This document shows, piece by piece, positions 7,711 through 46,052 of a stretch of 64,000 bases of DNA. The notes below the pieces were generated by a model, which saw nothing but the letters and a program-made list of their open reading frames with translations, searched no databases and was not told the origin of the DNA. The DNA is from an uncultured Mycoplasmatota bacterium. GTDB taxonomy: Bacteria; Bacillota_I; Bacilli_A; RF39; UBA660. Made by a program: the position numbers and the translations under genes. Position 1 is the first letter of the stretch; the number at the start of each line of letters is the position of its first letter. The DNA lies in NCBI GenBank assembly GCA_900551525.1, contig URWD01000002.1, positions 1,152 to 65,151 on the forward strand. Reading direction: 5' to 3'.

Positions 7711-7732
7711 AAATCATAGGTAGGTGGGCAAA

Positions 7733-8494
7733 ATGCATAGTTTTAAAAAATCTGCAATAATTGCTTTTTCATCACTATTTTTACTAACAAATGTAAACGC
7801 AGCTACATGTGGTTATGAAGAAAAAGCAAAGTTAAATAATGAAATAACAAATGTAAAGGCAAATTATGAAATTAAAGAAAGGGTAATGAATAAAGACGAA
7901 TATACAATTTCCGATGCTTTAATTGGAACTGAATACGAAGATACGTATGAAGCCACAACAGAATATATTCAAGTAAATATTTTGAATTTAACTGAAAATA
8001 TGTATGTTGAAGTAACAAATGATTATAACGATGATAAAGCTATATATCAATATAGTGACACAAAAAACGGGAACATATCATTTGATTGGCATGAAATTGA
8101 TGAACTGGTAACATATACTATTAAGGTTTATGCCTCAAGCGCTACAGGATGTGAAGGAACGATACTAAAAACATTGTATCAAGCTTTACCAAGGTATAAT
8201 GATTACTCAACATATGATATTTGTAAAAATATTCCTGATTCGTATTTATGTCAAAGGTATGTAACATATGAAAATATCGGTTTTGATGTTTTTACTGGTA
8301 GAATATATAAAGAAGTAGAAAAGAAAATTCAAAAAGAAGAAGAAACTAAAGAAAATGAAAAATGGTATAAAAAGGTTCAAAACTTTATTGTTAAACATAA
8401 AGTGCCATTTATCATCGGGGGAACAATATTGGTTGTCGCAGTTGGAAGTACAACATATATAATAATAAAGAAACGTAGGAGAAGTATAATATGA
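7733..8494 (+). CDS. Secreted protein with C-terminal TM anchor and 4 Cys; first gene of the operon (unknown function)
   Basis: The start is ATG 7733 (alternative GTG 7724), preceded by a G-rich RBS (GGTGGG). It has the signal peptide AIIAFSSLFLLTNVNA/ATC and the C-terminal anchor PFIIGGTILVVAVGSTTYIII followed by KKRRRS. There is no LPXTG motif. Confidence 0.6.
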   Translation: MHSFKKSAIIAFSSLFLLTNVNAATCGYEEKAKLNNEITNVKANYEIKERVMNKDEYTISDALIGTEYEDTYEATTEYIQVNILNLTENMYVEVTNDYNDDKAIYQYSDTKNGNISFDWHEIDELVTYTIKVYASSATGCEGTILKTLYQALPRYNDYSTYDICKNIPDSYLCQRYVTYENIGFDVFTGRIYKEVEKKIQKEEETKENEKWYKKVQNFIVKHKVPFIIGGTILVVAVGSTTYIIIKKRRRSII

Positions 8495-11400
8495 AAAAAA
8501 ATTTGAAAATATTAATAATTTTATTAACAATTTTTATTGGTTTTGCTAGCGCTGATGTTAAAGCTAGAACCATTGAAGAAAAAGAACAATTTACAAAACA
8601 AGCTAGTGGAAAACATAGTATCAGTGGTTTGAGCATTTTTGATGGTACTACATTTGGTATGTGGAAATATTCATTTGTTGATACTTCCAGTGAAAATTTT
8701 GTGGGATACTGTATGGACCCACATAAAGACGCATCTAATGGATATAAAGTCGATCGTATTCTCGGAGATACAGCGTATACAAAAAGAATAAATGCTTTTG
8801 ACCTAGGTGTCCTAGAAATTATTAAAAATGGTAAAAACCAATATAATGATAGTTTAACCTTTACAGTTGATGGCAGTTCAAAAACAATTAGTGGAGATTC
8901 ACTTTATGCTGCAACAAGTATAGCGGTACGTGCTTTTGCTTTAGGTGTCTTTGGATATGGCGGAGATGTTGAAAGTGCTAAATCAAGTCTAGTTCCATAT
9001 TATACAGGTGTTGCATCAGCACATATAACTAGGGGAATTCAATGGGCATCATACAACATAGATAAAATAAATACAATAACTGATACAAAATGTACAGGTT
9101 CTGTTGAAGATTTCAGAAAATGTTATGAAAAAACTTTTATTAAAGGATTTTTAAAGAATAATTGGTATAAAAATAGTTATAATTTCAAAATAAGCAGCAG
9201 TAGCTCTGAAGGCTATTTAGTAATGTATGCGGCTCAAAGTTTATTTATGAAAGGTTTTAACAGAGCATATGAAGTAATAACTGGTGATGTAACGACTGCT
9301 ACAGTTACAGCAACTGCCAACCCTTCAACAACAGATAAAACAACAACAGATAATACTATTGAAGAATATTATCATCAAACAATAGAGTTTGCTCAATTTG
9401 ATGCTCAAGATGGAAAAATAGATAATTTTACATTAACATGTCAAGACTGTGCAAAAAATAATATAACTTTAGGAAATCTTGAATTTTTTAATCCACAAAT
9501 AAATGATTGGCAAGTTGTTTCAAATATTAACGTTTTAACAGCATTTGATGCTGATGGTAAAACAAAAAGTGGAAAAATAGAATTGAGATTTAAAGTTACT
9601 AGGATAAAAGATGATGAAAATTGCAAATCAGTAAATTATAAAATATCATATAGATACGATGACCCAAGTTTAAAATACATCGGAGCATTATTGAAAACTA
9701 GTGATACAAGTAAACAAAGATTCTTTATTATTCAAAAAAATGATGGAAATTTAAAAAGTGAAATAACTGGAACGATAAAATGTTCAGCTTCTTGTGATAC
9801 AGAATTAGAATTACCAGTATGTAGCTATGAAGAAGATGATGCTGTTGCAAAAATCAATGGTCCAACCAAGATTAAAACTTGTATAATAGATAACCAAGAT
9901 GATGCAGGTAACACATATCAATTTACATCAGATGTAGGTGGAGTTGACAATTCTTACTGTAAAATCTATTGTAAAGAAGATTATGCAGAAATTAAATTAA
10001 ACCCAATAGTTAAAAATGTAAAATGTGGTGGATATTTCAAATTAACAAGTAAAATAAATGGTACAAAAACTTGTTATACAGGAAGTCCAAATACAACAGA
10101 AAACTCAACAAATGGTAAAAACAGTATAGATAAAGAAAAGTATTTACAAGATATAATTGCTGCTCAAAATAAAATGATTGAAGGCAGAGATTGGATATTA
10201 AAGGCTGAAGCGGCTTGGAAAACTATTCATGAACATACTGTTTCTTGTAGTTGTAATGGTTCTTATGATTATAATCACTCTCATGGTTCATATGCAGGAA
10301 TTGAAGCTGGAACTCCAACTGCAGAAGGATATGTACCAATAAAAAATGCCACACATAGCTACAGCATCGGCGGTGGCGGTGCATGCAATGTTGATTGGGA
10401 TGAATGTCCAAATGCTAACGGAAATGGTACTCATCGTTGTTGCGGAAGTGCAAATCCTACAGATGGAGATAGTTATAGTGATGTTTCTAACAAAATTCAA
10501 TCTCAATATTACAACCACGGAAAACAATTAATAGAAGAAGGTTTCAGAGCTTATGAAAAGGCTTTGAGAGATTACAATGCTTGTACAACAGCATGGACAA
10601 ACGAATTTGCTTTTGCTCAAGAAGTAAGATATTATTATGATGAAAATCGTGGAAAAGATAATACAAACTATGCTCCATACTTTGATTTATTAACTGGTAA
10701 AGATGAATTACAAAAATTAGAAAAATATGGAAATGAAAAAGTTGATACAAAAATTACAGTATGCACTGGGGCAACAAATGACAAGTATGAATGCTTAAAT
10801 AAAAATAATGAAAAAACATTTGACTTATCAATAGATAGCAACAGAAAAGTTGATTATAATTATAATTCATCATATGGAAATGTCTTTGCAACAAAACCAT
10901 ATACAACTTGTACAGTAAATGGTTGCGAAACAAAGAACCCATACGTTTCACAAGCAGCGTTTATAAAAAAAGAAGTAACAAAAGAACAAAAATACATTAC
11001 ACCAACAGCTTTCTATCAAATAGCTGCTAACGGAAAAGTAATAGCTTACGACAATTATTCAATTGATAAGGTTCAACTAGAACCATTAGTTAATAAATTA
11101 CCAATATCAACAAGTTCAGTTGGTGGTGGAGTATTCAAACTACTAGTTGAAAATCTTGGTGAATTCTATGATAAAAAAGATACTTATGGTAGATTAATTG
11201 ATTACAATGGAGTTAATGAAACTAAGAGTGTAGCTTATGCAGTAGGTGTAAACGCATTTGATGGCGAATATGTATGCTACTATGAAAATACATGTAGACC
11301 AAAAGATTGTCCTAACTGTGACTTTGTTTGTGAAGGTGATGGATGTGAATGGAAAGACTGTCCTTCATGCAACATATCATGTGTTAACTGTATATTCAAC

Positions 11401-11937
11401 TTAGACGATTTAAATATAATAGTTAAAACAATTACTACAACAGATGTAAATGCAGCAAATAGAACACATGGTTATAACTGGATTACATCAAGTAGTATGG
11501 AAGCATTACAATTATTAACTAAAAAAGCTTCAATGACAATTAGTGAAATTGAAGAAATAAATGAAATGATATATGATGATAAGACAACAGATGGATCAAC
11601 ACTTGGATTTAGTATTAAATTAACACCTGAAATAATAAATAAAATTACAGCATATAACAAAGACAATGAAGATAATGGTGGTTATATAAATAACTCATTA
11701 ACATGTTATGATGCCACAATTGATGGTGAAACATATAAAAACATTTATTGTTATAGCGAACTAATTGACAAGTTAGTTACTGAAAATGGTGATAATGTTA
11801 CAGTACTTCCGAGTAGAGTAAATGATGAAGCAAGACGTGCTAATGACACTGGAACTAGTGGTTATTGGACATTATGGTCAAATTATAGAATAGATAAAAC
11901 AAGTGAATCCGTAATCGGCGGACCATCTTGGAAATAA
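8491..11937 (+). CDS. 1148-aa secreted cysteine-rich protein (candidate filament-associated adhesin; function unknown)
   Basis: ATG overlaps the upstream TGA, and the RBS is AGGAGAAG. It has the signal peptide MKKNLKILIILLTIFIGFASADVKA and about 37 Cys by my count. Ten of those Cys fall within 39 residues (nt 11275-11391), including a tandem KDCPxCxxxC repeat. It has no TM and no LPXTG. Confidence 0.7.
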   Translation: MKKNLKILIILLTIFIGFASADVKARTIEEKEQFTKQASGKHSISGLSIFDGTTFGMWKYSFVDTSSENFVGYCMDPHKDASNGYKVDRILGDTAYTKRINAFDLGVLEIIKNGKNQYNDSLTFTVDGSSKTISGDSLYAATSIAVRAFALGVFGYGGDVESAKSSLVPYYTGVASAHITRGIQWASYNIDKINTITDTKCTGSVEDFRKCYEKTFIKGFLKNNWYKNSYNFKISSSSSEGYLVMYAAQSLFMKGFNRAYEVITGDVTTATVTATANPSTTDKTTTDNTIEEYYHQTIEFAQFDAQDGKIDNFTLTCQDCAKNNITLGNLEFFNPQINDWQVVSNINVLTAFDADGKTKSGKIELRFKVTRIKDDENCKSVNYKISYRYDDPSLKYIGALLKTSDTSKQRFFIIQKNDGNLKSEITGTIKCSASCDTELELPVCSYEEDDAVAKINGPTKIKTCIIDNQDDAGNTYQFTSDVGGVDNSYCKIYCKEDYAEIKLNPIVKNVKCGGYFKLTSKINGTKTCYTGSPNTTENSTNGKNSIDKEKYLQDIIAAQNKMIEGRDWILKAEAAWKTIHEHTVSCSCNGSYDYNHSHGSYAGIEAGTPTAEGYVPIKNATHSYSIGGGGACNVDWDECPNANGNGTHRCCGSANPTDGDSYSDVSNKIQSQYYNHGKQLIEEGFRAYEKALRDYNACTTAWTNEFAFAQEVRYYYDENRGKDNTNYAPYFDLLTGKDELQKLEKYGNEKVDTKITVCTGATNDKYECLNKNNEKTFDLSIDSNRKVDYNYNSSYGNVFATKPYTTCTVNGCETKNPYVSQAAFIKKEVTKEQKYITPTAFYQIAANGKVIAYDNYSIDKVQLEPLVNKLPISTSSVGGGVFKLLVENLGEFYDKKDTYGRLIDYNGVNETKSVAYAVGVNAFDGEYVCYYENTCRPKDCPNCDFVCEGDGCEWKDCPSCNISCVNCIFNLDDLNIIVKTITTTDVNAANRTHGYNWITSSSMEALQLLTKKASMTISEIEEINEMIYDDKTTDGSTLGFSIKLTPEIINKITAYNKDNEDNGGYINNSLTCYDATIDGETYKNIYCYSELIDKLVTENGDNVTVLPSRVNDEARRANDTGTSGYWTLWSNYRIDKTSESVIGGPSWK

Positions 11938-11948
11938 GGGGTGACTAA

Positions 11949-12362
11949 ATGAAGAATGCATTCTGGGCATACTGGTTGATACTATTAGGTATAGTAATCG
12001 TAGTAATAATGCTACTTGTTCAAAATCTTACAACAAGTAGCACTCAAGATTACTATCTAATTAAAGAAATAACTGAAGCATCTATGATTGATGCAGTAGA
12101 TTATTCTTATTATAGAACCTATGGTGAAGTAAAAATAAACAAAGAAAAATTTTATGAAAGTTTTATACGTCGTTTTTCAGAAAATGCCGCATTAAACACA
12201 ACTTACACAGTAAGCTTTTATGGAGTTTATGAAGCTCCCCCAAAAGCTAGTGTAGAAATTAAAAGTAAATCTAATACATTCAATGTTGTAGGTGATTCAA
12301 CTACATTTGATATGGTAGAAAGAATAGATGCAATACTTGAAGGTAATACACTTGATGAATAA
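11949..12362 (+). CDS. N-terminally anchored small protein, possibly pseudopilin-like
   Basis: RBS GGGGTG precedes the start. FWAYWLILLGIVIVVIMLLV is a TM, followed by a ~100-aa extracytoplasmic domain. Confidence 0.45.
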   Translation: MKNAFWAYWLILLGIVIVVIMLLVQNLTTSSTQDYYLIKEITEASMIDAVDYSYYRTYGEVKINKEKFYESFIRRFSENAALNTTYTVSFYGVYEAPPKASVEIKSKSNTFNVVGDSTTFDMVERIDAILEGNTLDE

Positions 12363-12379
12363 CATAAGGAGGAATAAAA

Positions 12380-13150
12380 ATGGGTGGTAAGAAAAATGTA
12401 TTTACAAAGTTTTTAACAAATAAAACAACAGTTACGTTAGTAGGTATTGTTCTAGGACTAGGAGTTTTAGTGGGATTTTACATATATCGTGTTAATAAAC
12501 AAGTAAATCCCACCCGTATTCCTGTTGCTAAAAGAGCTATAAGTGCTACTGAAGAAATAACAAAAGATGACATCGAATATGTCAAAGTTAGTAAAAGTTT
12601 CTTAAAAAAAAGAGATGTTTATCAATCAGTAACAAATTTAGTTGGTAAATATGTTTCAACTGGAACATCTATTCCTAAGGGAGGAATGTTCTATACAGCT
12701 CAAGTTGTTGAAAAAAAGGAATTACCAAATGCTATATTTGATGAAATACCTGAAGGATATACAATCTATCAATTAAAAGTAGATAATAATACAACATATG
12801 CTAATTCAATATATCCTGGTGATAAAATAGATTTATGGCTTAAAACAACTGAAAATGGTATTTTAGTTTTTGGTGAATTTATATCAAATATTGAGGTCTT
12901 AGCAGTTCGTGATAATGCTGGTCAAAATGTTTTTGATGTTACAAGTGGAAGAACTCCAGCATGGTTATTATTTGCTGTAAAGACTGATTTATATCGTTAT
13001 TTAAAACTAGCTGAAAGCATATCTGGGATGACTATTATTCCGGTTCCAAAAAATAATTTGGCAAATCCAGATGTTGGGTCAACTGAATATACAAGTCAAG
13101 AACTTATAGATATTCTAGATAGACAAACTCTTAGAATGGAGGCCCAATAA
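12380..13150 (+). CDS. cpaB: Flp pilus assembly protein CpaB-like (SAF domain), paralog 1
   Basis: RBS AAGGAGG precedes the start. It has an N-terminal TM, the SAF-like segment IPVAKRAISATEEITKDDIEYVKV, and a C-terminal beta-rich RcpC/CpaB-like part. Confidence 0.6.
   Translation: MGGKKNVFTKFLTNKTTVTLVGIVLGLGVLVGFYIYRVNKQVNPTRIPVAKRAISATEEITKDDIEYVKVSKSFLKKRDVYQSVTNLVGKYVSTGTSIPKGGMFYTAQVVEKKELPNAIFDEIPEGYTIYQLKVDNNTTYANSIYPGDKIDLWLKTTENGILVFGEFISNIEVLAVRDNAGQNVFDVTSGRTPAWLLFAVKTDLYRYLKLAESISGMTIIPVPKNNLANPDVGSTEYTSQELIDILDRQTLRMEAQ
12792..12846. repeat. 55-nt patch nearly identical (54/55) to 13562-13616
   Basis: CAACATATGCTAAtTCAATATATCCTGGTGATAAAATAGATTTATGGCTTAAAAC, with a single t/c difference at 12805/13575. 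The flanking paralog sequence is clearly diverged. Confidence 0.9.
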
Positions 13151-13959
13151 TGAATAATATCTTAGCAAAAATTAAAAATTTATTTCTTAATAGAAATACT
13201 GTTACAATATTGGGCGTTATAGCTGGTGTTATAGCATTATGGTTTGCTTATAGTATAACTTTAGACAAAGCTGTAAAACCTCAAAAAGTGCCAGTTGCAG
13301 CCAAAGATTTAACTGCAGGAACAATTATAACAAAAGAAGATATTGAATATGTTGAAGTAAATTCTGATGTATTAAAAAAGGCAAGTGTAGTAACTAGTTC
13401 TTCACAACTTATTGGTTATTATGTAACAAATAATACATCAGTAGTTCGTGGTTCAATGTTTTACAAAAGTCAAGTTGTAACAAAAGATAAATTAATTGAA
13501 AGAGATTTGGAAACAGTCCCAGAAGGTTATAGACTTTACTGGCTAAAAGTAGACAATGCTTCAACATATGCTAACTCAATATATCCTGGTGATAAAATAG
13601 ATTTATGGCTTAAAACTAAGAATGAAGGCAAATATGTATACGAAGAATTTATAACAAATATTGAAGTTCTTAGTGTTAAAGATTCAAAAGGACAAAATGT
13701 TTTTGATGTATCAAGCGGAAGAACTCCAGCAGTACTTGTATTTGCAGTAACAGATGAAATGTTCTCATATTTAAGTAAAATAGGTTATTTAAGTGGTATG
13801 GATTTATATCCAGTTCCAATTAATAAAAAGAATTCAGATAAAGATGCTACTACAGAAATAACAAATGATGCTTTAAGAACATTAATCGATAGCCAAGCTA
13901 GAAATGTTACACCAGATACAAATGAATCAAATAATGATAATAATACAAATAATGAATAA
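13150..13959 (+). CDS. cpaB: Flp pilus assembly protein CpaB-like (SAF domain), paralog 2
   Basis: The start overlaps the upstream stop (TAATG). The architecture matches 12380-13150: VPVAAKDLTAGTIITKEDIEYVEV, and it shares the block YANSIYPGDKIDLWLKT. Confidence 0.6.
   Translation: MNNILAKIKNLFLNRNTVTILGVIAGVIALWFAYSITLDKAVKPQKVPVAAKDLTAGTIITKEDIEYVEVNSDVLKKASVVTSSSQLIGYYVTNNTSVVRGSMFYKSQVVTKDKLIERDLETVPEGYRLYWLKVDNASTYANSIYPGDKIDLWLKTKNEGKYVYEEFITNIEVLSVKDSKGQNVFDVSSGRTPAVLVFAVTDEMFSYLSKIGYLSGMDLYPVPINKKNSDKDATTEITNDALRTLIDSQARNVTPDTNESNNDNNTNNE
13562..13616. repeat. Second copy of the 55-nt conserved patch (see 12792-12846)
   Basis: Direct comparison of the two stretches gives an offset of exactly 770 nt. 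Confidence 0.9.
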
Positions 13960-13965
13960 AAGAGG

Positions 13966-15072
13966 GTGTTACTAGTGAATGATGCTGTATTTTCACAAAT
14001 AGATTTTGGACCTTTAAAAGAGTTTTTAGAAGAAGATAACATAACTGACGTATCATATTCTAATGGTGGTCAAGTTTGGCTAAAAACTCTTGATAAAGGT
14101 ATATATAGGGTTGAAAGACCAGAAATAAATAATGCTTTAATGGAAAAGCTAGCTTTTCAATGTTCAAATGTTATGGGTAAAACATTTAATATGGCCCATC
14201 CATTTTTGGATGCTGAATCTGCAGAACTTCGTTTAAACTTTGTTCATGAATCTATAGCCACAAATGGTATTTGTTGCGTTATAAGAAAGACGCCTGCCAA
14301 AATCCGTCTAAACAAAGATAAACTGATAAATGAAAAATATGTAACAGAGGATTTACATGACTTTTTAATGACTTGTGTTGAAGGACACTGTAATATTATT
14401 GTAAGTGGGGAAACTGGATCAGGTAAAACAGAACTTGTTAAATACTTAGCCGCTCATACAAAAGAAAATGAAAAAATAATAACAATTGAAGATACTCTAG
14501 AACTTCACTTAGATAAAATATTTCCACATCGTGATATTGTTGCTATGAAAACAAATAATATTGCATCTTACTCAGATGTACTAGTAACATGTATGCGACA
14601 AAACCCAAGATGGATTTTACTATCCGAAGTTCGTTCAGCAGAAGCAGTTACAGCAGTACGTAACTCAATATCATCTGGACACAACATTATATCAACAATT
14701 CACTCAGATAGAGCTTTAAACATACCAATGCGTTTATATAGTTTGCTAGAAAACAGTCAAGATATAGACCAATTCTTAAAGTCAATTCACAGATATGTTC
14801 AAATTGGTGTTCATGTTAAAGGTTACATGAGTAAAGAATTAGGTAGATTCCAACGTGAAATAATCGAAGTCGTAGAATTTTATGTTGATGAAAATAACGA
14901 AGCAAAATCCAATATTATCTTTAAAAAAAGTTTAGATGGCAAGTTCAGTTTTAATAACCCAAGTAAATATTTAATTGACTATTTAGGTGTTCAAGGTGTA
15001 ACATTAAAACCAGATTATTTTGTCAAATCAAAAAATGACACAAATTCAGAAGCTGAAATAGAAAGCTTATAA
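13966..15072 (+). CDS. cpaF: CpaF/TadA-type (VirB11-like) type II/IV secretion ATPase
   Basis: It has Walker A VSGETGSGKTE, Walker B / Asp box RWILLSEVR and His box SGHNIISTIHS, at ~365 aa. The start is GTG 13966 or in-frame GTG 13975; the RBS AAGAGGG at 13960-13966 overlaps GTG 13966, so it favours 13975. Confidence 0.85.
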   Translation: MLLVNDAVFSQIDFGPLKEFLEEDNITDVSYSNGGQVWLKTLDKGIYRVERPEINNALMEKLAFQCSNVMGKTFNMAHPFLDAESAELRLNFVHESIATNGICCVIRKTPAKIRLNKDKLINEKYVTEDLHDFLMTCVEGHCNIIVSGETGSGKTELVKYLAAHTKENEKIITIEDTLELHLDKIFPHRDIVAMKTNNIASYSDVLVTCMRQNPRWILLSEVRSAEAVTAVRNSISSGHNIISTIHSDRALNIPMRLYSLLENSQDIDQFLKSIHRYVQIGVHVKGYMSKELGRFQREIIEVVEFYVDENNEAKSNIIFKKSLDGKFSFNNPSKYLIDYLGVQGVTLKPDYFVKSKNDTNSEAEIESL

Positions 15073-15090
15073 CAGAAAGGAGCGTTTAAT

Positions 15091-16014
15091 ATGTTTACAG
15101 TTAATTTAACAAGTTATTTACCAGAATTGTTAATACTATTAGCAATTGCTACAGTGGTTTTAATAGCTCGTCGAAATCCTGGTGAAAACGTATATAAATA
15201 TGTAACAAATAAAGCAACTGATATGTATGATAAATACGCTCCATACTCATTTAAAATGGTAAGAGAAAAAGCAGTTGAATTAGGACAAGAATATACTCCA
15301 AGACAATATTTAACACAAGTTATAATTCTTGGTGGTATAGCAGCTTTAGTAGGATATTTTTACTTTTATAGTATTGTCATTGCTGTAATATATGCAATTG
15401 TAGCCATAGCATTTATACCATATCTTGCTTATTTAAGACTACAAAGAGTGTATAGTGAATATATATTTGAACAAATACAAACATATACAACAAATGTTAT
15501 AATGGAATTTAATACAACTCAAAGTTTTGTTAAAGCTCTTGAAGGTGTTAGAGATTCAGGGATTCTTGAAGAACCAGTTGTTAGTGATGTCAAAAAGATG
15601 ATTGAAATGTCATATCAAAATGGTACCATAGATGAATCAATAACTTATTTTAATAGCAAATACCCATTTTACATGGTAAAAAATATGCATCAATTATTCC
15701 TACAAATAACCAAAGAAGGTGCCAGAGATTCAGGACAAGCATTAGAAAATATGTCACTTGATATTGATGCCTTAGTAGAAGGTGTATATCGTGACCAAAT
15801 GGACAGAAATAATTTCCATGGCAGATTCCTAAGATTCGGTTTAATTTTATATTTACTCGTTATAGTTTTAAGATTCATGTTAGGTGAAGACAATTATATT
15901 AAATTACTAGATATATGGTATGTACAAATTATTTTACATGCTATTGTCATTATAAATGCTTTCTTTATGTTAAGTGGAGAAAAATACTATAATGAAGATG
16001 TAGGAGGAGAATAA
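15091..16014 (+). CDS. tadB: TadB-like platform protein (T2SS-F family)
   Basis: RBS AAAGGAG precedes the start. It is polytopic, with an N-terminal TM, a central TM pair and a C-terminal TM pair. The cytoplasmic helical domain is TTNVIMEFNTTQSFVKALEGV..., and the gene sits directly after the ATPase. Confidence 0.6.
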   Translation: MFTVNLTSYLPELLILLAIATVVLIARRNPGENVYKYVTNKATDMYDKYAPYSFKMVREKAVELGQEYTPRQYLTQVIILGGIAALVGYFYFYSIVIAVIYAIVAIAFIPYLAYLRLQRVYSEYIFEQIQTYTTNVIMEFNTTQSFVKALEGVRDSGILEEPVVSDVKKMIEMSYQNGTIDESITYFNSKYPFYMVKNMHQLFLQITKEGARDSGQALENMSLDIDALVEGVYRDQMDRNNFHGRFLRFGLILYLLVIVLRFMLGEDNYIKLLDIWYVQIILHAIVIINAFFMLSGEKYYNEDVGGE

Positions 16015-16802
16015 TGCAAATAGAAGTTATTATTGTCGCTGTAATCGTATTTGGTATAATGACTATAACTGGTCAAATAAGTATTAATCAGCTTATAAGT
16101 GATAATCAAATGCTTTTTATGAAGTTAAAAGAAAAAGATTGGGATTTTCTAGTCAGAGCCAAGTATGGAAATAATGTTAATCCAGACATTCTCTTTAATA
16201 AAAGAATAAAAAATGCTCTAATTACTATGGCTATAGCATTTGCCTTTTTAATCAAAGATTTAAATGCTGTTAAAGTATTATTAATATTTGTTCTAGGAGT
16301 GTTTATCTTTAAAACATCTTATAATGATATAAAAAAATATTATCAACGACATATGTCTGAAATAGACTCGATGTTACCACATTATTTAAAAAACCTAGAA
16401 ATATTAATTCAACATTATACTGTACCAGTTGCTATTGGTAAATCAATGGCTGAATCACCAGAAATATTTAAAGATGGATTACAAGAAATGATTGACTCTA
16501 TAAATTCTGGGGATGATACGATCGAACCATATATGGAATTTGCTAGAAAGTATCCAGTACGTGATTCAATGCGTATGATGCGTTTATTATATCGTCTAAG
16601 TTTAGGACGTCAAGAAAGAAAACAAGAACAAATACTAACATTTTCAAGATCAATATCTTCACTTCAACAAAAAGCTCGTGAAACAAGATACAAAAATAGA
16701 CTAGAAAAAATGGAAGGCAAAACCATGAGTATGCTTATAACAACTGGGGTAGGATTAATGATATTACTAGTTTTAGCTGTTATACAACTTATGGACATAT
16801 AA
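16014..16802 (+). CDS. tadC: TadC-like platform protein (T2SS-F family)
   Basis: TAATG overlap with the upstream gene. It has LPHYLKNLEILIQHYTVPVAIGKSMAESPEIFKDGLQEMIDSINSGDDTIEPYMEFARKYP and a C-terminal TM, typical of GspF/TadC domains. Confidence 0.65.
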   Translation: MQIEVIIVAVIVFGIMTITGQISINQLISDNQMLFMKLKEKDWDFLVRAKYGNNVNPDILFNKRIKNALITMAIAFAFLIKDLNAVKVLLIFVLGVFIFKTSYNDIKKYYQRHMSEIDSMLPHYLKNLEILIQHYTVPVAIGKSMAESPEIFKDGLQEMIDSINSGDDTIEPYMEFARKYPVRDSMRMMRLLYRLSLGRQERKQEQILTFSRSISSLQQKARETRYKNRLEKMEGKTMSMLITTGVGLMILLVLAVIQLMDI

Positions 16803-16826
16803 ATTTACAAAAAGTTTAAAATATAA

Positions 16827-16855
16827 TTGATATTTTAAGGAAATTAAGTTATAAT
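16827..16855 (+). promoter_or_regulatory. Internal sigma-A-type promoter in front of the pilin genes
   Basis: TTGATA (16827-16832), a 17-nt spacer, then TATAAT (16850-16855). A strong RBS GGAGG (16871-16875) follows. Confidence 0.55.
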
Positions 16856-16882
16856 AAAAATATATTAAAAGGAGGATAACAA

Positions 16883-17128
16883 ATGAAAGAAGCTACTGGA
16901 GAATTAAATATGACTGTAGTTACTGTAGTTGCAATTGCTGCTGTTGGTGCTTTCTTCTATTTCTTTATCTGGCCTGGTATTCAAGCTGGACTTTCAAGAA
17001 ATACTTGCCTAAATCTATGTCCAGGCGGAGAATTGGACACAGCCCAAGGACGTGGTGGTGTAGATGTTAATAACAGAACTTGTTTTTGTGCAGATGGAAC
17101 ACAAATAGATTTTGGCGACGAAGAATAA
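16883..17128 (+). CDS. Small Flp-sized pilin candidate 1 (81 aa, 4 Cys in the head)
   Basis: The layout is a short polar leader MKEATGELNMT, a ~22-aa hydrophobic helix VVTVVAIAAVGAFFYFFIWPGI, and a small Cys-containing C-terminal part. It sits in a Tad-like operon. Confidence 0.5.
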   Translation: MKEATGELNMTVVTVVAIAAVGAFFYFFIWPGIQAGLSRNTCLNLCPGGELDTAQGRGGVDVNNRTCFCADGTQIDFGDEE

Positions 17129-17150
17129 GACAAAACATAAGAGGTGAAAA

Positions 17151-17411
17151 ATGAAAGAGGCTACAGGAGAATTAAATATGACGATAATAGTTTCTATATC
17201 GATCGGTATCTTGGCAGCCTTTTTTTTCGGCTTTTTATGGCCAATGATTAATGGAAATTTTCAAAAAAATTCACAATGTAGCAAAGCTATATGTGATTGT
17301 AGTACTGAAGTAAGAAATACAATAGAAAACGAAACTGGTCAAAAAAATCATTGTTTATGCAGAAATAGTGCAACAGATGAAAACACTTTTTATTGCCCAT
17401 TCAAAGGTTAG
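17151..17411 (+). CDS. Small Flp-sized pilin candidate 2 (86 aa, 6 Cys in the head)
   Basis: RBS AGAGGTGA precedes the start. The leader MKEATGELNMT is identical to pilin 1 at the protein level and nearly so at the DNA level. A hydrophobic helix follows, then a divergent Cys-rich head. Confidence 0.5.
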   Translation: MKEATGELNMTIIVSISIGILAAFFFGFLWPMINGNFQKNSQCSKAICDCSTEVRNTIENETGQKNHCLCRNSATDENTFYCPFKG

Positions 17412-17420
17412 GAGGAAATT

Positions 17421-17918
17421 ATGAAAGAATCGATGAGTGTAACATATATATTTCAAATAGTAATACTATTTATTCTATTATTTACAGCAATAATGGCTTT
17501 AACAATAAATAATTCCAACGCCTTTGGAATTAAAGACCAAATAGTAAATATATTAGAAGCAAATGGGGGAAATTACTTAGAAGACGGAAATTTAGATGAA
17601 GAAATAATAAATTTAATAGAAAGTACATCATATCGTACAACTGGAAAATGCGATGAAGATTATCAAGGTTTTGATAGAACTGGAGCTGCTGTTTCATCTA
17701 ATCAAGATGCATCAATATGCATAAAAGAAGTAAATGCAACAGATGGTGTAGATAATTATCTATCGGATATTTTTGGCACTGGTAAAGTTGCAACAGGTGA
17801 TTTTATGCCAGGCAAATATTATCAAATAGTAGTATTTTTCCAATTAGATTTACCAGTTGTAAAACAAGTTTATAATTTTAAATCTAAAGCTGAAACAAAA
17901 GTTATATACCAAAAATAA
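17421..17918 (+). CDS. TadE-like pseudopilin candidate 1
   Basis: RBS AGGAGG precedes the start. The N-terminal helix is TYIFQIVILFILLFTAIMALTI, followed by a ~135-aa domain. It shares TGKC(D/P)E(D/N)... with 17932-18384. Confidence 0.4.
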   Translation: MKESMSVTYIFQIVILFILLFTAIMALTINNSNAFGIKDQIVNILEANGGNYLEDGNLDEEIINLIESTSYRTTGKCDEDYQGFDRTGAAVSSNQDASICIKEVNATDGVDNYLSDIFGTGKVATGDFMPGKYYQIVVFFQLDLPVVKQVYNFKSKAETKVIYQK

Positions 17919-17931
17919 GGAGAGAAATTAA

Positions 17932-18384
17932 ATGAAAACAGTAAGTGAATCAACATGGACATTTCAAATGATTATCTTCTTCATTCTAATATTTGCTTGT
18001 TTTCTAACTTTAGTTTTAAGTTATAATAAAGCTTATACAATAAAGAATCGTATGCTTAATATTATTGAAAAATATGAAGGTGTAACACCAACATCAGCTG
18101 AGCTAATAAATGACTACATATATAATAAAGGATATACCAATACTGGTAAATGTCCAGAAAACTGGATGGGAGCAACAAATATAGATGGAGAATTTGAGTT
18201 ATCAAAAAGTGATAACAGATATTTATATTGCTTTAAAAAAAGTTATAAAAATAATTTAGTATATTATGATGTAAAAGTTTTTTTTAGATTTAATTTACCT
18301 GTTATAGGTAGTATAGCAAACTATGAAATAGATGGAACAACAAAGACTTTTATAGGTGCAGAAGATCAAATAGAGGAGTATTAA
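17932..18384 (+). CDS. TadE-like pseudopilin candidate 2
   Basis: RBS AAGGAGAG precedes the start. The N-terminal helix is TWTFQMIIFFILIFACFLTLVL. It is a paralog of 17421-17918. Confidence 0.4.
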   Translation: MKTVSESTWTFQMIIFFILIFACFLTLVLSYNKAYTIKNRMLNIIEKYEGVTPTSAELINDYIYNKGYTNTGKCPENWMGATNIDGEFELSKSDNRYLYCFKKSYKNNLVYYDVKVFFRFNLPVIGSIANYEIDGTTKTFIGAEDQIEEY

Positions 18385-18385
18385 T

Positions 18386-19375
18386 ATGAATGTAATAGTA
18401 TCAAATAAATATCAATCATTATTATCAAGTTTAAATATTGATGTAATTAAAAGTATAAATGGAGAATTTACAGTAGAAGAATTAGTAAGTCAATTTCAAA
18501 GTTTTTACTTTAATAAAATGATTATAGACATAACAGCAATAAAAGGTTATGAAGAAATAACAGTAATGCAAAATTTATCTGTAAATTTTGATATGTCTAA
18601 AGTTATTTTATTACTAGATGATTCAGAAAAAGTTAATTCTCCAGTATATATATCACAATTAATATCTATGGGAATATACAATTTCACCAGTGATATAAAT
18701 ACAGTAAAATACCTAATAGATAATCCCAATCAATACAAAGATGTAGCAAACTATCATAATATAAGTGGATTTAAGAAACCAGTATTAAATGAAAGATCTG
18801 TTGATAATACTCGTGGTAAAATGGGGCAAAAGATTATTGGCTTTAAAAACATTACAGAACATGCTGGTGCAACAACACTAATATATTTGCTTAAATTACA
18901 CTTAGAAAAGGCATATAATGTTAAAGCTGTAGAAATAGATAAAAATGACTTTATATATTTTAATGATAATACACTTGAAAGTGTATCAAGTTTAGGTTTT
19001 AATGATTTTTTAAGTAATAATACCAATTATGATATAATTTTAGTTGATTTAAATGATGGAAACGTATCTGAGTACTGTCATGATATAATTTATTTAATTG
19101 AACCAGGTCTTATTAAATTAAATAAGTTAATTAGAGAAGACAATGCTATATTTACTAAATTAAATGAAAAAAAGATAGTTCTTAACAGAAGTGTACTTGA
19201 CACAAAAGATGTACAAGACTTTGAAAAAGAAAGTGGAAGTAAAGTTTTTTTCAATATGCCTTGTTTAGATGATAAGTTAGATGATCAAATGGTAGTTAAT
19301 GCTTTTTTAACAGCCTTAGGTTTTAGTAGAATTGATGCAAATGGAAGTTCAGGAATATTTAGTATATTCAAATAG
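18386..19375 (+). CDS. TadZ/CpaE-like protein: receiver-like N-domain plus ParA/MinD-like domain with degenerate Walker A
   Basis: RBS GAGGAG precedes the start. The N-terminus has a flavodoxin-like pattern (MNVIVSN...KMIIDITA...VILLLDD). The C-terminus has IIGFKNITEHAGATTLIYLL (where KGGxGKTT is expected), DIILVDLN, IYLIEPG and KIVLNR. Confidence 0.5.
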   Translation: MNVIVSNKYQSLLSSLNIDVIKSINGEFTVEELVSQFQSFYFNKMIIDITAIKGYEEITVMQNLSVNFDMSKVILLLDDSEKVNSPVYISQLISMGIYNFTSDINTVKYLIDNPNQYKDVANYHNISGFKKPVLNERSVDNTRGKMGQKIIGFKNITEHAGATTLIYLLKLHLEKAYNVKAVEIDKNDFIYFNDNTLESVSSLGFNDFLSNNTNYDIILVDLNDGNVSEYCHDIIYLIEPGLIKLNKLIREDNAIFTKLNEKKIVLNRSVLDTKDVQDFEKESGSKVFFNMPCLDDKLDDQMVVNAFLTALGFSRIDANGSSGIFSIFK

Positions 19376-19389: not shown

Positions 19390-19740
19390 ATGAATTTTTG
19401 TTATAAGACTGCAAGTGTATGGTTATTTATTGGTAAATTATTATTCATTTTAAAGATATTAATACCAATAGCTATTATAGTATTAGGAAGCATAGATTTA
19501 GGAAAAGCAGTAATTTCAAGTGATGATAAATCAATAAAAACAGCTAGTACCAAGCTATTAAAAAGAATAGTAGCTGGAATATGCATTTTTTTCATACCAG
19601 TTATTATAAAAGTGTTATTTTCTATGATTGGCATTATAAGTGATGAAATAAAAAATGACTATATAAATTGTATAAACTGCATTACAGATCCGTATAACAA
19701 TTGTGATGCATCGTATGAAGGCAATATATACAAAAAATAA
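19390..19740 (+). CDS. 2-TM small membrane protein with N-terminal Cys and C-terminal C-x2-C-x6-C tail (family member 1)
   Basis: RBS GGGAGG precedes the start. Sequence: MNFCYKTASVWLFIGKLLFILKILIPIAIIVLGSIDLGKAVISSDDKSIK...RIVAGICIFFIPVIIKVLFSMIG...INCINCITDPYNNC. Confidence 0.6.
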   Translation: MNFCYKTASVWLFIGKLLFILKILIPIAIIVLGSIDLGKAVISSDDKSIKTASTKLLKRIVAGICIFFIPVIIKVLFSMIGIISDEIKNDYINCINCITDPYNNCDASYEGNIYKK

Positions 19741-19769
19741 TTGACTTTAATGTAAAATTAGGGTAAAAT
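19741..19769 (+). promoter_or_regulatory. Sigma-A-type promoter candidate
   Basis: TTGACT (19741-19746), a 17-nt spacer, then TAAAAT (19764-19769). RBS GAAGGAGG follows. Confidence 0.5.
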
Positions 19770-19796
19770 AAATATATACAGAAGGAGGAAAGTTTT

Positions 19797-20135
19797 ATGA
19801 ATTTTTGTGAAGATGCTGGTTCAGTTTGGTATACTCTTGGAATGTTTATGTTAGTATTCAAAGTTGTTATTCCAGTACTATTGATTGTTTTTGGAATGGT
19901 AGACTTAGGAAAAGCTGTAATATCAAGTGATGACAAAGCTGTATCAAAGGCTGCTAAAACATTATTAAATCGTGTTATAGCTGGGGTATGTATTTTCTTT
20001 ATTCCAACTATTGTAGGATTAGTATTTAAAATGGTTGGGGCATTTGGTGAGGTTAAAAATCAATATGATTATTGTGCTGCATGCGTAAGTAATCCAACCG
20101 GTGATAAATGTTCAGGTATAAAAAATAATGGCTAA
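19797..20135 (+). CDS. 2-TM small membrane protein with N-terminal Cys and C-terminal C-x2-C-x6-C tail (family member 2)
   Basis: Sequence: MNFCEDAGSVWYTLGMFMLVFKVVIPVLLIVFGMVDLGKAVISSDDKAVS...RVIAGVCIFFIPTIVGLVFKMVG...YCAACVSNPTGDKC. It is a paralog of 19390-19740. Confidence 0.6.
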   Translation: MNFCEDAGSVWYTLGMFMLVFKVVIPVLLIVFGMVDLGKAVISSDDKAVSKAAKTLLNRVIAGVCIFFIPTIVGLVFKMVGAFGEVKNQYDYCAACVSNPTGDKCSGIKNNG

Positions 20136-20157
20136 AAAAAATTAATAATTTAAACTT

Positions 20158-20196
20158 AACAAATGAGAAATTATTATTTCTCATTTGTTTTTTATT
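20158..20196 (+). terminator. Strong rho-independent terminator closing the operon
   Basis: A 14-bp perfect stem pairs AACAAATGAGAAAT (20158-20171) with ATTTCTCATTTGTT (20176-20189), with loop TATT, followed by TTTTTATTT. Confidence 0.85.
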
Positions 20197-20298
20197 TATA
20201 AAATATTTGATAAAAGATAAAGTATTACAGAATGTCAATATATCATTTTAAATAATATTATACAAAATGTGTAGATATAACAAATTAAAATTAATTCA

Positions 20299-20325
20299 TA
20301 AAAAATAGAGCTTATTCAGCTCTAT
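20299..20325 (-). terminator. Terminator of the 514-aa minus-strand gene
   Basis: Stem ATAGAGC (20305-20311) pairs with GCTCTAT (20319-20325) and spans the stop codon. The A-run 20300-20305 gives a U-run on the minus strand. Confidence 0.5.
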
Positions 20326-43504: not shown

Positions 43505-44812
43505 ATGAAGTATATGAAAATAATGATACTTGCAATAACTCTTTTACTATTAACCGGATGTGGGTGGAGTGATGTCCAAGATAAGTATGAAGATTTATTA
43601 AATCAAAATATTTCTTGTACTTATTATACAGAAGAAAAGAGTGCCTCAGACGATTTTTTTGGAGTGGGAACCATGGTATTATCTGCAGATTATAATGGTT
43701 TTTATCTAAATTTGAACAATAATAAAAAAATAGTTTTATATGACAATAATGGAGAAAATACTTATTTAGACTTTCCAACTCAATATGTTTATATGCAAAC
43801 AGATTTCAAAGAAAGTTATTTCAAAAAATATCTAGAAAATAATAGCTGTCCTTCTACAATTTATATTTATATGGGAGGAGATCCTTATTTTTCAGTTAAT
43901 AGTTGCGATGGAATAGGAGCTTGCAGTTCTTATGTTCTTAAACAAAATCAAGTAACAGATGAAAATGGTGAAAAGATTGATTGTCACTATCCAAATGCAG
44001 TTGCGTGTGCTAAAACATCAACAGAAAATACTAAACCTAAGTATTATTTAGAGTTTGGTTATTATAAAAAATCAAATGGTACAATATCAAAATATTTTGG
44101 TGTTTCATCAGATAAAAACTACAAAAATATGGAAGTTGCTATAGATGACGATGAATTGACAGTTTATGAAAATTTATCATTTTTTACGGTTACGTCAGAT
44201 GCTTCAAAAGAAATATATCTTTCTAACAATAAATTTATTGCCATGGATAAGTTAATCATAAAACCAACTGTGACAACCAACACAACTTACTTTATTACGG
44301 GACCAAATTCAACAAATTATGGAGATTTAGATGAAGTTGGTAACGAGGAAGTTCCAAACATTGATCCGGACAATTCAGAAATTGAAAATACACCGCAAGA
44401 GGATTTGGATATAACAGAAGTTGAAGTATGTGGTGCAGGAACAACATCGCTTCTTGTATTTCAAGTAATAGGTTATATAATATTAATAATAAAAATATTA
44501 GTACCAATTATATTAATAGTACTTGGAAGCATAGATTTAGGAAAAGCATCATTAAGTGGAGATGACAAAGCAGTAAAAGAAGCAGCAATTAGCTTCGCTA
44601 AAAGAGTATTAATTGGATTAATAATATTCTTCGTACCAACAATATTAGATTTCTTTTTAGGACTTGTTGAAGGCACAACTGATGTATCCAGTAAATACCG
44701 TGGATGTACAGATTGTGTACTAAATCCAAATAATAGTAGTAAATGTTCTCCAAAAAAGTTGAATGATAATAACTCTGCCCAAGATGGTGTTTCTACTAGC
44801 GGAAAATTTTAG
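43505..44812 (+). CDS. Lipoprotein with a ~300-aa extracellular domain fused to the 2-TM / C-x2-C-x6-C module (family member 3)
   Basis: AAGG 43493-43496 precedes ATG 43505. The lipobox is LLLTGC. The C-terminus reads EVCGAGTTSLLVFQVIGYIILIIKILVPIILIVLGSIDLGKASLSGDDKAVK...LIGLIIFFVPTILDFFLGLV...GCTDCVLNPNNSSKC. Confidence 0.7.
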   Translation: MKYMKIMILAITLLLLTGCGWSDVQDKYEDLLNQNISCTYYTEEKSASDDFFGVGTMVLSADYNGFYLNLNNNKKIVLYDNNGENTYLDFPTQYVYMQTDFKESYFKKYLENNSCPSTIYIYMGGDPYFSVNSCDGIGACSSYVLKQNQVTDENGEKIDCHYPNAVACAKTSTENTKPKYYLEFGYYKKSNGTISKYFGVSSDKNYKNMEVAIDDDELTVYENLSFFTVTSDASKEIYLSNNKFIAMDKLIIKPTVTTNTTYFITGPNSTNYGDLDEVGNEEVPNIDPDNSEIENTPQEDLDITEVEVCGAGTTSLLVFQVIGYIILIIKILVPIILIVLGSIDLGKASLSGDDKAVKEAAISFAKRVLIGLIIFFVPTILDFFLGLVEGTTDVSSKYRGCTDCVLNPNNSSKCSPKKLNDNNSAQDGVSTSGKF

Positions 44813-44822
44813 TAAAAGAGGT
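44384..44822. repeat. 439-nt direct repeat, copy 1 (437/439 identical to 45614-46052)
   Basis: A base-by-base comparison finds differences only at 44778 (c vs t) and 44796 (c vs g). The repeat covers the last 143 codons, the stop, and 10 nt beyond it including AAAAGAGGT. Confidence 0.95.
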
Positions 44823-44830: not shown

Positions 44831-46042
44831 GTGAAAAAATATTTTTGCATAATAACTTTGTTAGCTTTATTTATTTTGCCAACATCAATTAAGGCAGAAG
44901 AATATGATTGCTACTATTATTCCAAAAATAAAAGAAGTGAGGTTGGATATAATCTTCAAGAGAAACATGTAGGATTATTTGGAAATAATTCAATTGATAT
45001 CATTAAATTTAAAGGAAAAGCACTAAACAAAAGTACAACTGGAAACAAAAGTGTTGGAGATCAAATTCCCGATAAATGTTATGAATATGTTTCAATAAAA
45101 GCATCCAAAGTTATGACTTCAGGAAGAACAACATATTCTTTTAAATTAGGTGATGATATTACTGATGTAAGTTCCCAAAGTAATGCTGATGATGTTATTT
45201 TAAAACTAAATGGTTTTCTAGAGGATAGTGAAGAAAAAATTTGTCAAAATGAAGTTAAGTCAAGCATTAATTATAACAATGACTTAGATGAACTAGATTT
45301 AGATATAAAGGCAACATATGCAGTTAGATTTAAGTTTGTAACAAAAGAAGATGGCAAAAGAGAATTTATTGTTTCATATGATGGAGCTGAAAAAAGTAGT
45401 GGGGAATTTGAAAGTACAAACGTGCCAAGTGTCAGTTTAGATAATGTAAAAAATGATAATGGTGATATTGCCACATTCGGTGTAGATAGTGAATATGTGG
45501 AAAAATTTTGGGGAGCATGCGTTGCACCATCCATGTTCAACATCAAAAAAAGTGGTTCAACCTATACCTTGTTTTCAGATAGAAAAGAAGATAATGAAAA
45601 TTATCAAAAAGAAGAAAATACACCGCAAGAGGATTTGGATATAACAGAAGTTGAAGTATGTGGTGCAGGAACAACATCGCTTCTTGTATTTCAAGTAATA
45701 GGTTATATAATATTAATAATAAAAATATTAGTACCAATTATATTAATAGTACTTGGAAGCATAGATTTAGGAAAAGCATCATTAAGTGGAGATGACAAAG
45801 CAGTAAAAGAAGCAGCAATTAGCTTCGCTAAAAGAGTATTAATTGGATTAATAATATTCTTCGTACCAACAATATTAGATTTCTTTTTAGGACTTGTTGA
45901 AGGCACAACTGATGTATCCAGTAAATACCGTGGATGTACAGATTGTGTACTAAATCCAAATAATAGTAGTAAATGTTCTCCAAAAAAGTTGAATGATAAT
46001 AACTCTGTCCAAGATGGTGTTTCTAGTAGCGGAAAATTTTAG
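44831..46042 (+). CDS. Secreted protein with a ~260-aa extracellular domain fused to the 2-TM / C-x2-C-x6-C module (family member 4)
   Basis: RBS AAAAGAGGTG precedes GTG 44831. The signal peptide is LLALFILPTSIKA/EE. The C-terminal 143 aa differ from those of 43505-44812 at only 2 residues. Confidence 0.7.
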   Translation: MKKYFCIITLLALFILPTSIKAEEYDCYYYSKNKRSEVGYNLQEKHVGLFGNNSIDIIKFKGKALNKSTTGNKSVGDQIPDKCYEYVSIKASKVMTSGRTTYSFKLGDDITDVSSQSNADDVILKLNGFLEDSEEKICQNEVKSSINYNNDLDELDLDIKATYAVRFKFVTKEDGKREFIVSYDGAEKSSGEFESTNVPSVSLDNVKNDNGDIATFGVDSEYVEKFWGACVAPSMFNIKKSGSTYTLFSDRKEDNENYQKEENTPQEDLDITEVEVCGAGTTSLLVFQVIGYIILIIKILVPIILIVLGSIDLGKASLSGDDKAVKEAAISFAKRVLIGLIIFFVPTILDFFLGLVEGTTDVSSKYRGCTDCVLNPNNSSKCSPKKLNDNNSVQDGVSSSGKF

Positions 46043-46052
46043 TAAAAGAGGT
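45614..46052. repeat. 439-nt direct repeat, copy 2
   Basis: See 44384-44822. The offset is exactly 1230 nt. Confidence 0.95.

Follow-up and report, generated by a model that had tools for sequence, protein, structure and literature searches.

We analysed a stretch of 64,000 nucleotides (nt) from an uncultured Mycoplasmatota bacterium (contig URWD01000002.1 of assembly GCA_900551525.1; GC 27%), referred to as the window throughout. It encodes a membrane module of about 105 amino acids (aa) with two transmembrane (TM) helices, both in free-standing genes that close a Tad-like pilus operon and fused to the C-termini of exported proteins. Gene order in related species, matches to pilin-like families of type IV secretion systems (T4SSs) and a conserved cysteine pattern indicate that the module is probably VirB2-like and serves a chromosomally encoded surface apparatus as a subunit or an anchor, for which filament formation is putative.

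A conserved module in free-standing and fused genes

A profile of 30 free-standing orthologues matched exactly four open reading frames (ORFs) of the window, with E-values of 1e-54, 1e-46, 3e-39 and 3e-39. These are the same four genes that a preliminary description, made from the sequence alone, had reported to share the module:

19390..19740, + strand: free module copy 1, 116 aa (ORF; profile E 1.5e-46)
19797..20135, + strand: free module copy 2, 112 aa, with which the operon ends (ORF; profile E 1.1e-54)
43505..44812, + strand: lipoprotein with lipobox LLTGC, an ectodomain of ~290 aa and a C-terminal module at nt ~44423-44812 (ORF; E 3e-39)
44831..46042, + strand: secreted protein with a signal peptide ending in SIKA/EE, an ectodomain of ~265 aa and a C-terminal module at nt ~45653-46042 (ORF; E 3e-39)
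44384..44822, + strand: 439-nt near-identical repeat with its partner at 45614-46052 (437 of 439 nt identical, local alignment)

In alignment, the four copies are 38-45% identical and share invariant residues, namely a Cys on the N-side, DLGKA, S..DDK, R59 ahead of TM2, IFF.P, Y..C..C...C and a P. Judged by these motifs, identities and E-values, the likeness is far greater than plain TM hydrophobicity would give, as had been argued before.

Copy 1 begins directly with M-N-F-C, without a leader, and its Cys residues at positions 4, 94, 97 and 105 are predicted to be extracellular. Both free copies have strong Shine-Dalgarno sites (AGGGAGG, 8 nt upstream, for copy 1). Comparison with 12 orthologues, with dS near saturation in several pairs, yielded dN/dS values of 0.09-0.23 for copy 1 and 0.11-0.28 for copy 2, so that the free copies are real genes under purifying selection. 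Copy 2 is the better conserved of the pair, with 75-85% identity to its orthologues in related species, and is the orthologue of the single free copy of other clades. Its exact protein was indexed in 1,780 blocks of a public assembly collection, and loci identical or near-identical to that of the window were present on metagenome contigs of up to 323 kb.

The fused pair is located 24 kb from the free copies, and its exported N-termini, a lipobox and a signal peptide, agree with the earlier account. In the lipoprotein, the module occupies residues 312-423 of the open frame. The whole lipoprotein matched the second fused gene of a VirB-adjacent array in a related species (locus L078) with an E-value of 4.9e-36, far stronger than a module-only match, and a homologue search with the ectodomain gave four matches, of which one was genuine (44% identity). 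BLASTP found no similarity between the N-domains of the two fused genes. The 439-nt repeat takes in the module and 10 nt past the stop codon, and the 5' two-thirds of both genes are unrelated, a pattern that indicates that gene conversion, or else a recent duplication, placed the module behind different ectodomains. The four reported copies are real, and because the fused modules are nearly identical in nucleotides, they amount to three independent copies in the window.

A word-seeded search returned 223 homologues, most of them 105-135 aa long and from metagenome-assembled genomes (MAGs) labelled 'Bacilli', 'Firmicutes' or 'Clostridia bacterium'. The module had been called new-looking; most homologues indeed lack a family name, but several bear a precomputed PF18895.6 match. 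Among 1.84 billion cluster representatives, the profile matched 9,411 at E<=1e-3 and 4,159 at E<=1e-10. The best 150 representatives comprised 76 free-standing proteins and 74 fusions, with the module at the extreme C-terminus in most, and a crude heuristic assigned a signal-peptide-like or lipobox N-terminus to 64 of the 74 fusions. Contigs representing one genome per species encoded relatives at 516 loci. The best 80 of these came nearly all from uncultured Bacilli, 'Tenericutes' or Erysipelotrichaceae gut MAGs; a few labelled Agathobacter or Muribaculaceae may be binning errors. Named carriers are Firmicutes bacterium CAG:460, Clostridium sp. CAG:609, Candidatus Ventrenecus, Onthocola and Coprovivens, which we take to belong to GTDB order RF39 and its neighbours; for RF39, reduced genomes and many auxotrophies are reported. 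No relatives were found on 72,556 PLSDB plasmids (tblastn, E<=1) or on IMG/VR viral contigs (pattern and tblastn scan). At the level of sequence, the module is a genuine conserved family.

Module arrays lie between Tad-like and VirB-like genes

All gene-order counts refer to the best 80 of the 516 species loci, cited by number where needed; together with four assemblies of the window's species, 84 loci were fetched. ORFs of the 80 loci were searched with the operon proteins of the window and with the proteins encoded downstream of the module arrays. In 59 of the 80 species the module directly follows the same Tad-like operon, after its last gene for a 329-aa protein. The linkage to Tad genes is therefore strong, contrary to the outcome that had been named as a refutation, homologues without such linkage. 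Among the 84 fetched loci, 51-57 carry the same Tad gene set upstream of the module. In 32 of the 80 species a VirB6-like gene and a split VirB3/VirB4 (the VirB block) come immediately after a module array. The earlier statement that conjugation genes are not nearby is thus true for the window but not for these relatives. The loci were distributed as follows:

19 of 80 loci: Tad operon, modules and VirB block, contiguous
30 of 80 loci: Tad operon and modules, VirB block absent downstream; the window's type, always with two free copies
10 of 80 loci: Tad operon and modules, contig ends
10 of 80 loci, plus 3 with too little upstream DNA: modules and VirB block, Tad absent upstream
1-2 of 80 loci: solitary module; the remaining loci are undeterminable

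For the ten VirB-linked loci in which Tad genes are absent, at least 6 kb of upstream DNA was available. A free-standing copy heads every array and is often followed by one to seven genes on the same strand, each coding for a different exported domain (45-526 aa) with the module at its C-terminal end; the longest row consisted of eight module genes (L070).

The gene after the array encodes a protein of 700-780 aa with about eight hydrophobic segments, which matched the conjugal transfer family MMCAP2_0566 with an E-value of 5.8e-10. It is followed by three ORFs of ~104, ~200 and ~600 aa that tile the VirB4 model of the Mycoplasma integrative and conjugative element (ICE) at positions 2-91, 100-276 and 294-889. 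The ATPase ORF matched this model with 8.3e-101, the CD1110 VirB4-like family with 3.2e-53 and Pfam AAA_10 and P-loop_TraG, as well as, weakly, NCBIfam CedD (1.5e-12), and the middle ORF bears Pfam TraC-like. This split of VirB4 into three overlapping ORFs (VirB3-like TM part, ~104 aa; TraC-like N-domain, ~200 aa; ATPase, ~594 aa) was observed in L026, L028, L048, L064, L085, L090 and about 25 other loci (for example L048 15376-18012). An NlpC/P60-type hydrolase is often encoded after the VirB block, and in L090 an NlpC/P60 protein is encoded just before the VirB6-like gene. Array and VirB block also occur together in L085-L087 and L090, with the order pyk, free module, six fused modules, VirB6-like, VirB3-like, TraC-like, VirB4, pgsA-like and ftsK in L085-L087. 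Because the flanks are housekeeping genes and plasmid or viral matches were not obtained, these loci are chromosomal and non-mobile. No relaxase or coupling protein was seen near the fetched array/VirB loci. A 1,532-aa FtsK/SpoIIIE protein encoded upstream of the stand-alone array of L048 was considered as a coupling protein and dropped, since it looks EssC-like and its small neighbouring genes are associated with type VII secretion. The region in question (L048 218-9651), with the EssC-like protein and several small genes, one of them weakly type VII secretion-associated, forms a cluster resembling a type VII secretion system that abuts the array and VirB block.

The best 120 of 7,258 matches to the VirB4-like ATPase were 83-100% identical to the query, and an identity of 83-93% holds across over 100 sequence clusters (clustered at 90% identity), whose members come from numerous metagenomes and MAGs. 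Hairpins from VirB4-bearing genomes are about 50% identical to those of the window. Such conservation, unusual for a T4SS gene, points to VirB4 as part of what would be a core, vertically inherited machine and not a mobile element. Two prevalent VirB4 proteins that were examined are encoded on other contigs with other flanks than the window's. One of these contigs has a GC content of 30%; the second has 26.8%, and its modules are ~70% identical to the window's in nucleotides.

Sequence relation to T4SS pilins

Copy 2 matched PF18895 (T4SS_pilin) with an E-value of 9e-4 and 19.7 bits, the gathering threshold being 26.6 bits, and 23 of the 30 orthologues matched this family at E<=0.01, the best with 2.5e-8. 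By number of members, the top NCBIfam family was NF045849 (Mbov_0395, from Mycoplasma ICE), which was matched at E<=0.1 by 12 of the 30 orthologues (best 7e-4); copy 2 scored 12.2 bits and did not reach the cut-off of 40 bits. Further Mycoplasma ICE membrane families ranked after NF045849, all under their cut-offs. The window copies gave no match to PF04956 (TrbC/VirB2) at E<=1. With two TM helices and no prepilin motif, the module does not qualify as a Flp/Tad (type IVc) pilin. Some orthologues have 10-25 extra N-terminal residues, which lack a hydrophobic core. Homology to classical VirB2 leans on the Pfam family name together with what we take to be the clan placement of PF18895. On its own, the sequence evidence for kinship with pilins is suggestive, not decisive.

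Predicted topology and a conserved cysteine pattern

Hydropathy analysis revealed hydrophobic segments at about residues 7-35 and 60-82 of the module, and AlphaFold2, run with a 30-sequence alignment, confidently predicted a helical hairpin (mean pLDDT 81.7), in which helices span residues 8-43 and 46-82 and the short tail is helical as well, in accordance with the two-TM hairpin that had been described. Because the fusions carry exported N-terminal domains, the N-side of the module would be outside, and with two TM helices the C-tail would then be outside, too. Both termini outside and the charged loop inside, as previously proposed, is therefore the most consistent prediction, and its better support comes from the signal-peptide-like or lipobox N-termini of the fused relatives. 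The argument from a basic loop holds in part: the loop of copy 2 bears K/R but is only moderately basic (5 K/R vs 3 D), and the N-tail is acidic and has no K/R.

Cysteines were counted in 209 modules from 80 loci, which fell into type A (n=173) and type B (n=36). Type A modules have one Cys before TM1 in 134 of 173 cases and three tail Cys, C-x2-C...C, in 160 of 173. Type B modules carry a STIDYxKA loop motif and only two Cys (e.g. L074 7827-10171; L064 14699-15958), with one Cys before TM1 in 30 of 36, one tail Cys in 34 and a C-terminal C-G-I in 31. They are always encoded by the last gene or genes of an array, directly before the VirB6-like gene (loci L026-L084), and are absent from the window. 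The N-side Cys is accompanied by tail Cys, and the total is even (1+3 or 1+1). Since type B modules have one Cys on each side, their sole possible intramolecular disulfide would join the N- and C-tails. The pattern supports the putative disulfide staple between the two outside ends that had been suggested earlier.

Even Cys counts were also found in other exported proteins of the Tad-like operon, namely 4 and 6 in the pilin-like, 2 and 2 in the pseudopilin-like and 4 in the 256-aa protein. The fused proteins have 6+4 and 4+4 Cys (ectodomain + module), the background Cys frequency being 0.86%, and the 1148-aa operon protein has 37 Cys including a CPNCDFVCEGDGCEWKDCPSCNISCVNC cluster. Such Cys-rich exported proteins with even counts suggest that this gut anaerobe has a surface machine that depends on disulfides.

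The Tad-like operon and its surroundings

The free copies form the end of the operon, which was identified by Pfam and NCBIfam matches and ATPase comparison:

7724..19375, + strand: Tad-like pilus operon upstream of the free copies
13966-15072, + strand: CpaF-like ATPase (T2SSE 7.6e-29)
15091-16802, + strand: two polytopic proteins, TadB/C-like by size and position only (no Pfam match)
16883-17128 and 17151-17411, + strand: pilin-like proteins of 81 and 86 aa with one N-terminal hydrophobic helix each
19741..19769, + strand: promoter-like site TTGACT-17-TAAAAT within the 56 nt that separate the free copies (10 of 12 matches in a consensus scan)
20158..20189, + strand: terminator-like hairpin with a 14-bp stem and a T run, 23 nt past the stop of copy 2, closing the operon

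The operon starts with genes for a Cys-rich 256-aa protein, a Cys-rich surface protein of 1148 aa, a DUF5411 protein (Pfam E 3.5e-58) and two CpaB/RcpC-SAF proteins (Pfam RcpC/SAF; TIGR03177 CpaB 3.7e-10), followed by the CpaF-like ATPase, the two polytopic and the two pilin-like proteins, two pseudopilin-like proteins of 150-165 aa with one N-terminal TM segment each by hydropathy, and the 329-aa protein. The nearest solved relative of the ATPase is CpaF (2.7e-19), ahead of FlaI and VirB11. Both pilin-like proteins have the identical N-terminus MKEATGELNMT, which is not the canonical Flp G/xxxxEY motif, and the operon showed no gene for a prepilin peptidase. Two terminator-like hairpins were found, with 0.1 expected in shuffles, consistent with the earlier view that the free copies close the operon. 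The promoter-like site is only a lead, as the regional count of such matches is not above that of shuffles.

Convergent with the operon, a gene at 20312-21856 (-) encodes a 514-aa protein with an N-terminal TM helix and long low-complexity runs of Asn, Ser and Thr, for which no family match was found. Thirty of the 84 fetched loci encode a homologue at this position, and each of them has the Tad operon without an adjacent VirB block. The flanking genes are housekeeping genes, with uvrA and lgt on one side and recX, nusA and infB around the fused pair. In three assemblies of the window's species (L001, L003 and L004, ~19860-20339, downstream of lgt/trxB), a PDDEXK_2 gene and a MazE/PemK toxin-antitoxin pair lie a few kb downstream of the operon. 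The window also encodes spoIVA (58838-60334), and cotJB/cotJC-like genes lie just outside it (L088 19338-20325); they indicate a spore-forming lineage, although relatives are labelled 'Tenericutes' or 'Mycoplasma sp.'. A DUF87 ORF (60654-62390) considered as a hidden VirB4 turned out to be HerA-like instead; this ATPase, which adjoins spoIVA, matched NF042943 with 2.2e-49, below the cut-off.

Proposed function and alternative explanations

We propose that a lineage-specific, VirB2-like hairpin of the T4SS_pilin type would insert in the cytoplasmic membrane with its tails outside and its helical, K/R-bearing loop inside. The N-side Cys and tail Cys would form one or more disulfides that tie the ends, comparable to the head-to-tail cyclisation by which TrbC/VirB2 pilins are closed but without a covalent backbone link. 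The ancestral state may correspond to the fullest arrangement seen, a single chromosomal super-operon with the Tad-like genes, one free module, up to seven fused modules, the VirB6-like gene, the split VirB3/VirB4 and often a cell-wall hydrolase. The free copy would be the major structural subunit, either pilin-like or lining a channel or base, and the fused copies may enter the same assembly or membrane site via their hairpin and display fast-evolving ectodomains as adhesin-like minor subunits. For loci of the window's type, possibilities are a VirB block elsewhere in the genome or hairpins that work with the Tad machine alone. A bolder version, in which Tad genes, hairpin array and VirB6/VirB3/VirB4 make up one composite, chromosomally fixed contact organelle, we consider unlikely. 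Stapled hairpins, free and ectodomain-bearing, would then build a surface filament or channel through which auxotrophic gut Bacilli attach to other cells and exchange material, and species of the window's type would represent a derived state with hairpins and the Tad machine only.

Several observations weigh against a VirB2-like role. Homologues of the VirB6-, VirB3-, TraC- and VirB4-like proteins were not detected among the window ORFs (phmmer, E<=0.01), and no VirB4, VirB6 or VirD4 homologue was present within 10 kb beyond either window end (84 kb in total). The window thus belongs with the 30 loci that pair two free copies with the Tad operon and have no VirB block downstream. Copy 1 and the lipoprotein gave no match to PF18895, and the fused protein of 403 aa scored 10.1 bits, so that all window copies are under the threshold. 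The free copies lack the long leader of the TrbC/VirB2 type and start with M-N-F-C right before TM1. A profile search against PDB sequences found no solved conjugative pilin at E<=10, the only matches being opsin/rhodopsin and Shaker channel noise, and Foldseek with the AlphaFold2 model reached a best E of 2.6 against PDB, a bare helical hairpin being uninformative in such a comparison. To our knowledge, ectodomains of 45-526 aa on a VirB2-type pilin are unprecedented, and they would be hard to pack at every subunit. The orthologues that match PF18895 also spuriously match 7tm_1 and Frizzled, down to ~1e-5, and hairpin noise is therefore only about three orders of magnitude weaker than the best PF18895 match. 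Because of these spurious matches, reversed-sequence controls were run, which gave a PF18895 match in 0 of 10 at E<=0.1, with a best spurious match of 0.0025. Set against 23 of 30 orthologues, and together with Mbov_0395 as top NCBIfam family, this leaves the resemblance to TrbC/VirB2, initially described as loose, better founded than thought.

The hairpin could instead serve the Tad-like machine specifically, as a dock or anchor of the kind first suggested, which may tether the base or pass surface proteins to the filament, with the VirB adjacency elsewhere being secondary. The position of the module right after the 329-aa last Tad gene in 59 of the 80 loci would fit, as would the lack of an adjacent VirB block in 30 of these 59, the window included, and the location of the purifying-selected free copies inside the terminator of the operon. 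Moreover, no MAG of the window's type occurs twice among the best 80 loci, which speaks weakly against another free copy linked to VirB genes. We nonetheless regard this explanation as rather improbable, since 10-13 loci combine arrays with the VirB block and have no Tad genes in the upstream DNA available, and since sequence matches lead to T4SS pilin-like families and to no Tad component. We also know of no Tad system with such a hairpin component.

Less probable still is a generic C-terminal membrane anchor that replaces sortase, with the free copies as partner or regulatory proteins and no role in a filament or in secretion. Such an anchor would account for the fusions behind exported domains in about half of the 150 representatives, with the module mostly at the extreme C-terminus, for the unrelated and fast-evolving ectodomains and for the solitary free copy between ezrA and iscS/thiI in L075. 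It would have no need for loop residues that never vary (DLGKA, R59), for four conserved Cys, for a copy 2 that is 75-85% identical to its orthologues, for a free copy at the head of every array or for a fixed position between the Tad and VirB genes. That the similarity arose by chance or composition and the family is not real has already been refuted: TM-hairpin matches are generally noisy, as 7tm_1 and Frizzled illustrate, but neither the window profile E-values down to 1e-54 and the 4,159 representatives at E<=1e-10 nor the conserved motifs and synteny can be explained in this way.

Comparison with known systems

Arrays of 2-11 PF18895/VirB2-like genes near virB4 have been described in Patescibacteria, and a six-gene VirB2-like array is essential in Southlakia epibionticum (PMC12102498, PMC12857230). 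According to a 2025 T4SS review, Gram-positive T4SSs lack VirB2 and VirB5, with Patescibacteria as the one exception (PMC12857230). The loci described here share with the T4SS of Patescibacteria, or candidate phyla radiation (CPR), a single-membrane host, a chromosomal location and the lack of a relaxase or coupling protein in the fetched loci, as well as tandem, divergent PF18895-type hairpin genes (up to eight here, 2-11 in CPR) beside monoderm (MPF-FATA-like) VirB6/VirB3/VirB4 genes and a separate type IV filament system in the genome. In contrast to CPR, the host belongs to the Bacillota, most array members are fused behind exported domains of 45-526 aa, four (or two) conserved Cys are predicted to lie outside, and the array is located between a Tad-like operon and the VirB block, of which the window holds the Tad-linked part only.

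The best named relatives are the Mycoplasma ICE families (NF045849, NF045848, NF045975), with the VirB4-like match at 8.3e-101, the VirB6-like match at 5.8e-10 and the pilin-like Mbov_0395/MMCAP2_0565 as the module's top NCBIfam family; VirB4 there is Mbov_0397. The order hairpin, polytopic protein, VirB4 is also alike, as far as the Mycoplasma order can be taken from the locus-tag numbers in the family names. Unlike in Mycoplasma, where the pilin-like protein has ~80 aa (profile length 80) and the genes reside on mobile ICEs, VirB4 is encoded here in three ORFs and the loci are chromosomal with housekeeping flanks; all matches to these families are below the NCBIfam cut-offs. Mycoplasma ICEs carry a relaxase, and we know of no Cys tail or ectodomain fusion in their pilin-like proteins. 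They also encode a DDE transposase (PMC6030558).

RP4 TrbC, the Agrobacterium T-pilin VirB2 and F TraA are likewise hairpins of two helices whose ends face outside and whose basic loop is cytoplasmic, as predicted here. TrbC/VirB2 pilins are cyclised head-to-tail, so that the ends are tied there by cyclisation and here by a putative disulfide, and VirB4/VirB6 neighbours are present in the related genomes. Unlike the classical pilins, the module has no PF04956, sequence or fold match, its free copies are leaderless, and the context of an outer-membrane complex, VirB5 and VirB10 is absent. Archaeal Ced/Ted DNA import systems consist of the pilin CedA1, VirB6-like CedA and VirB4-like CedB and work with type IV pili (PMC12102498). 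Their minimal VirB2/VirB6/VirB4 set without a relaxase resembles the one found here, where the link to a type IV filament is genomic and a weak CedD match was obtained, but they belong to another domain of life, and the module directly matches no Ced pilin (PDB profile search).

Literature searches on RF39 with type IV secretion or pili and on DUF5411 returned nothing relevant. Already known are the 'pilin-like' NCBIfam family from Mycoplasma ICE and PF18895 matches on some orthologues. New is the combination of a Bacillota lineage, ectodomain fusions, a Cys pattern, the position between Tad genes and a split VirB4 and the extreme conservation of a chromosomal VirB4. The variable exported-domain fusions, the N-to-C Cys pattern and the physical coupling to a Tad operon are undescribed for CPR and proteobacterial pilins. 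With 9,411 representatives and 516 loci, the family would be a large one and the second VirB2-type exception after Patescibacteria, in low-GC Bacilli that form a prevalent but uncultured lineage of the human and animal gut. The family is a candidate means for these bacteria to interact with neighbours or host, and species with Tad genes, hairpins and VirB block next to species with Tad genes and hairpins only provide a natural experiment. The composite organelle, if true, would be the Bacillota counterpart of the essential T4SS-plus-pilin array in epibiotic Patescibacteria.

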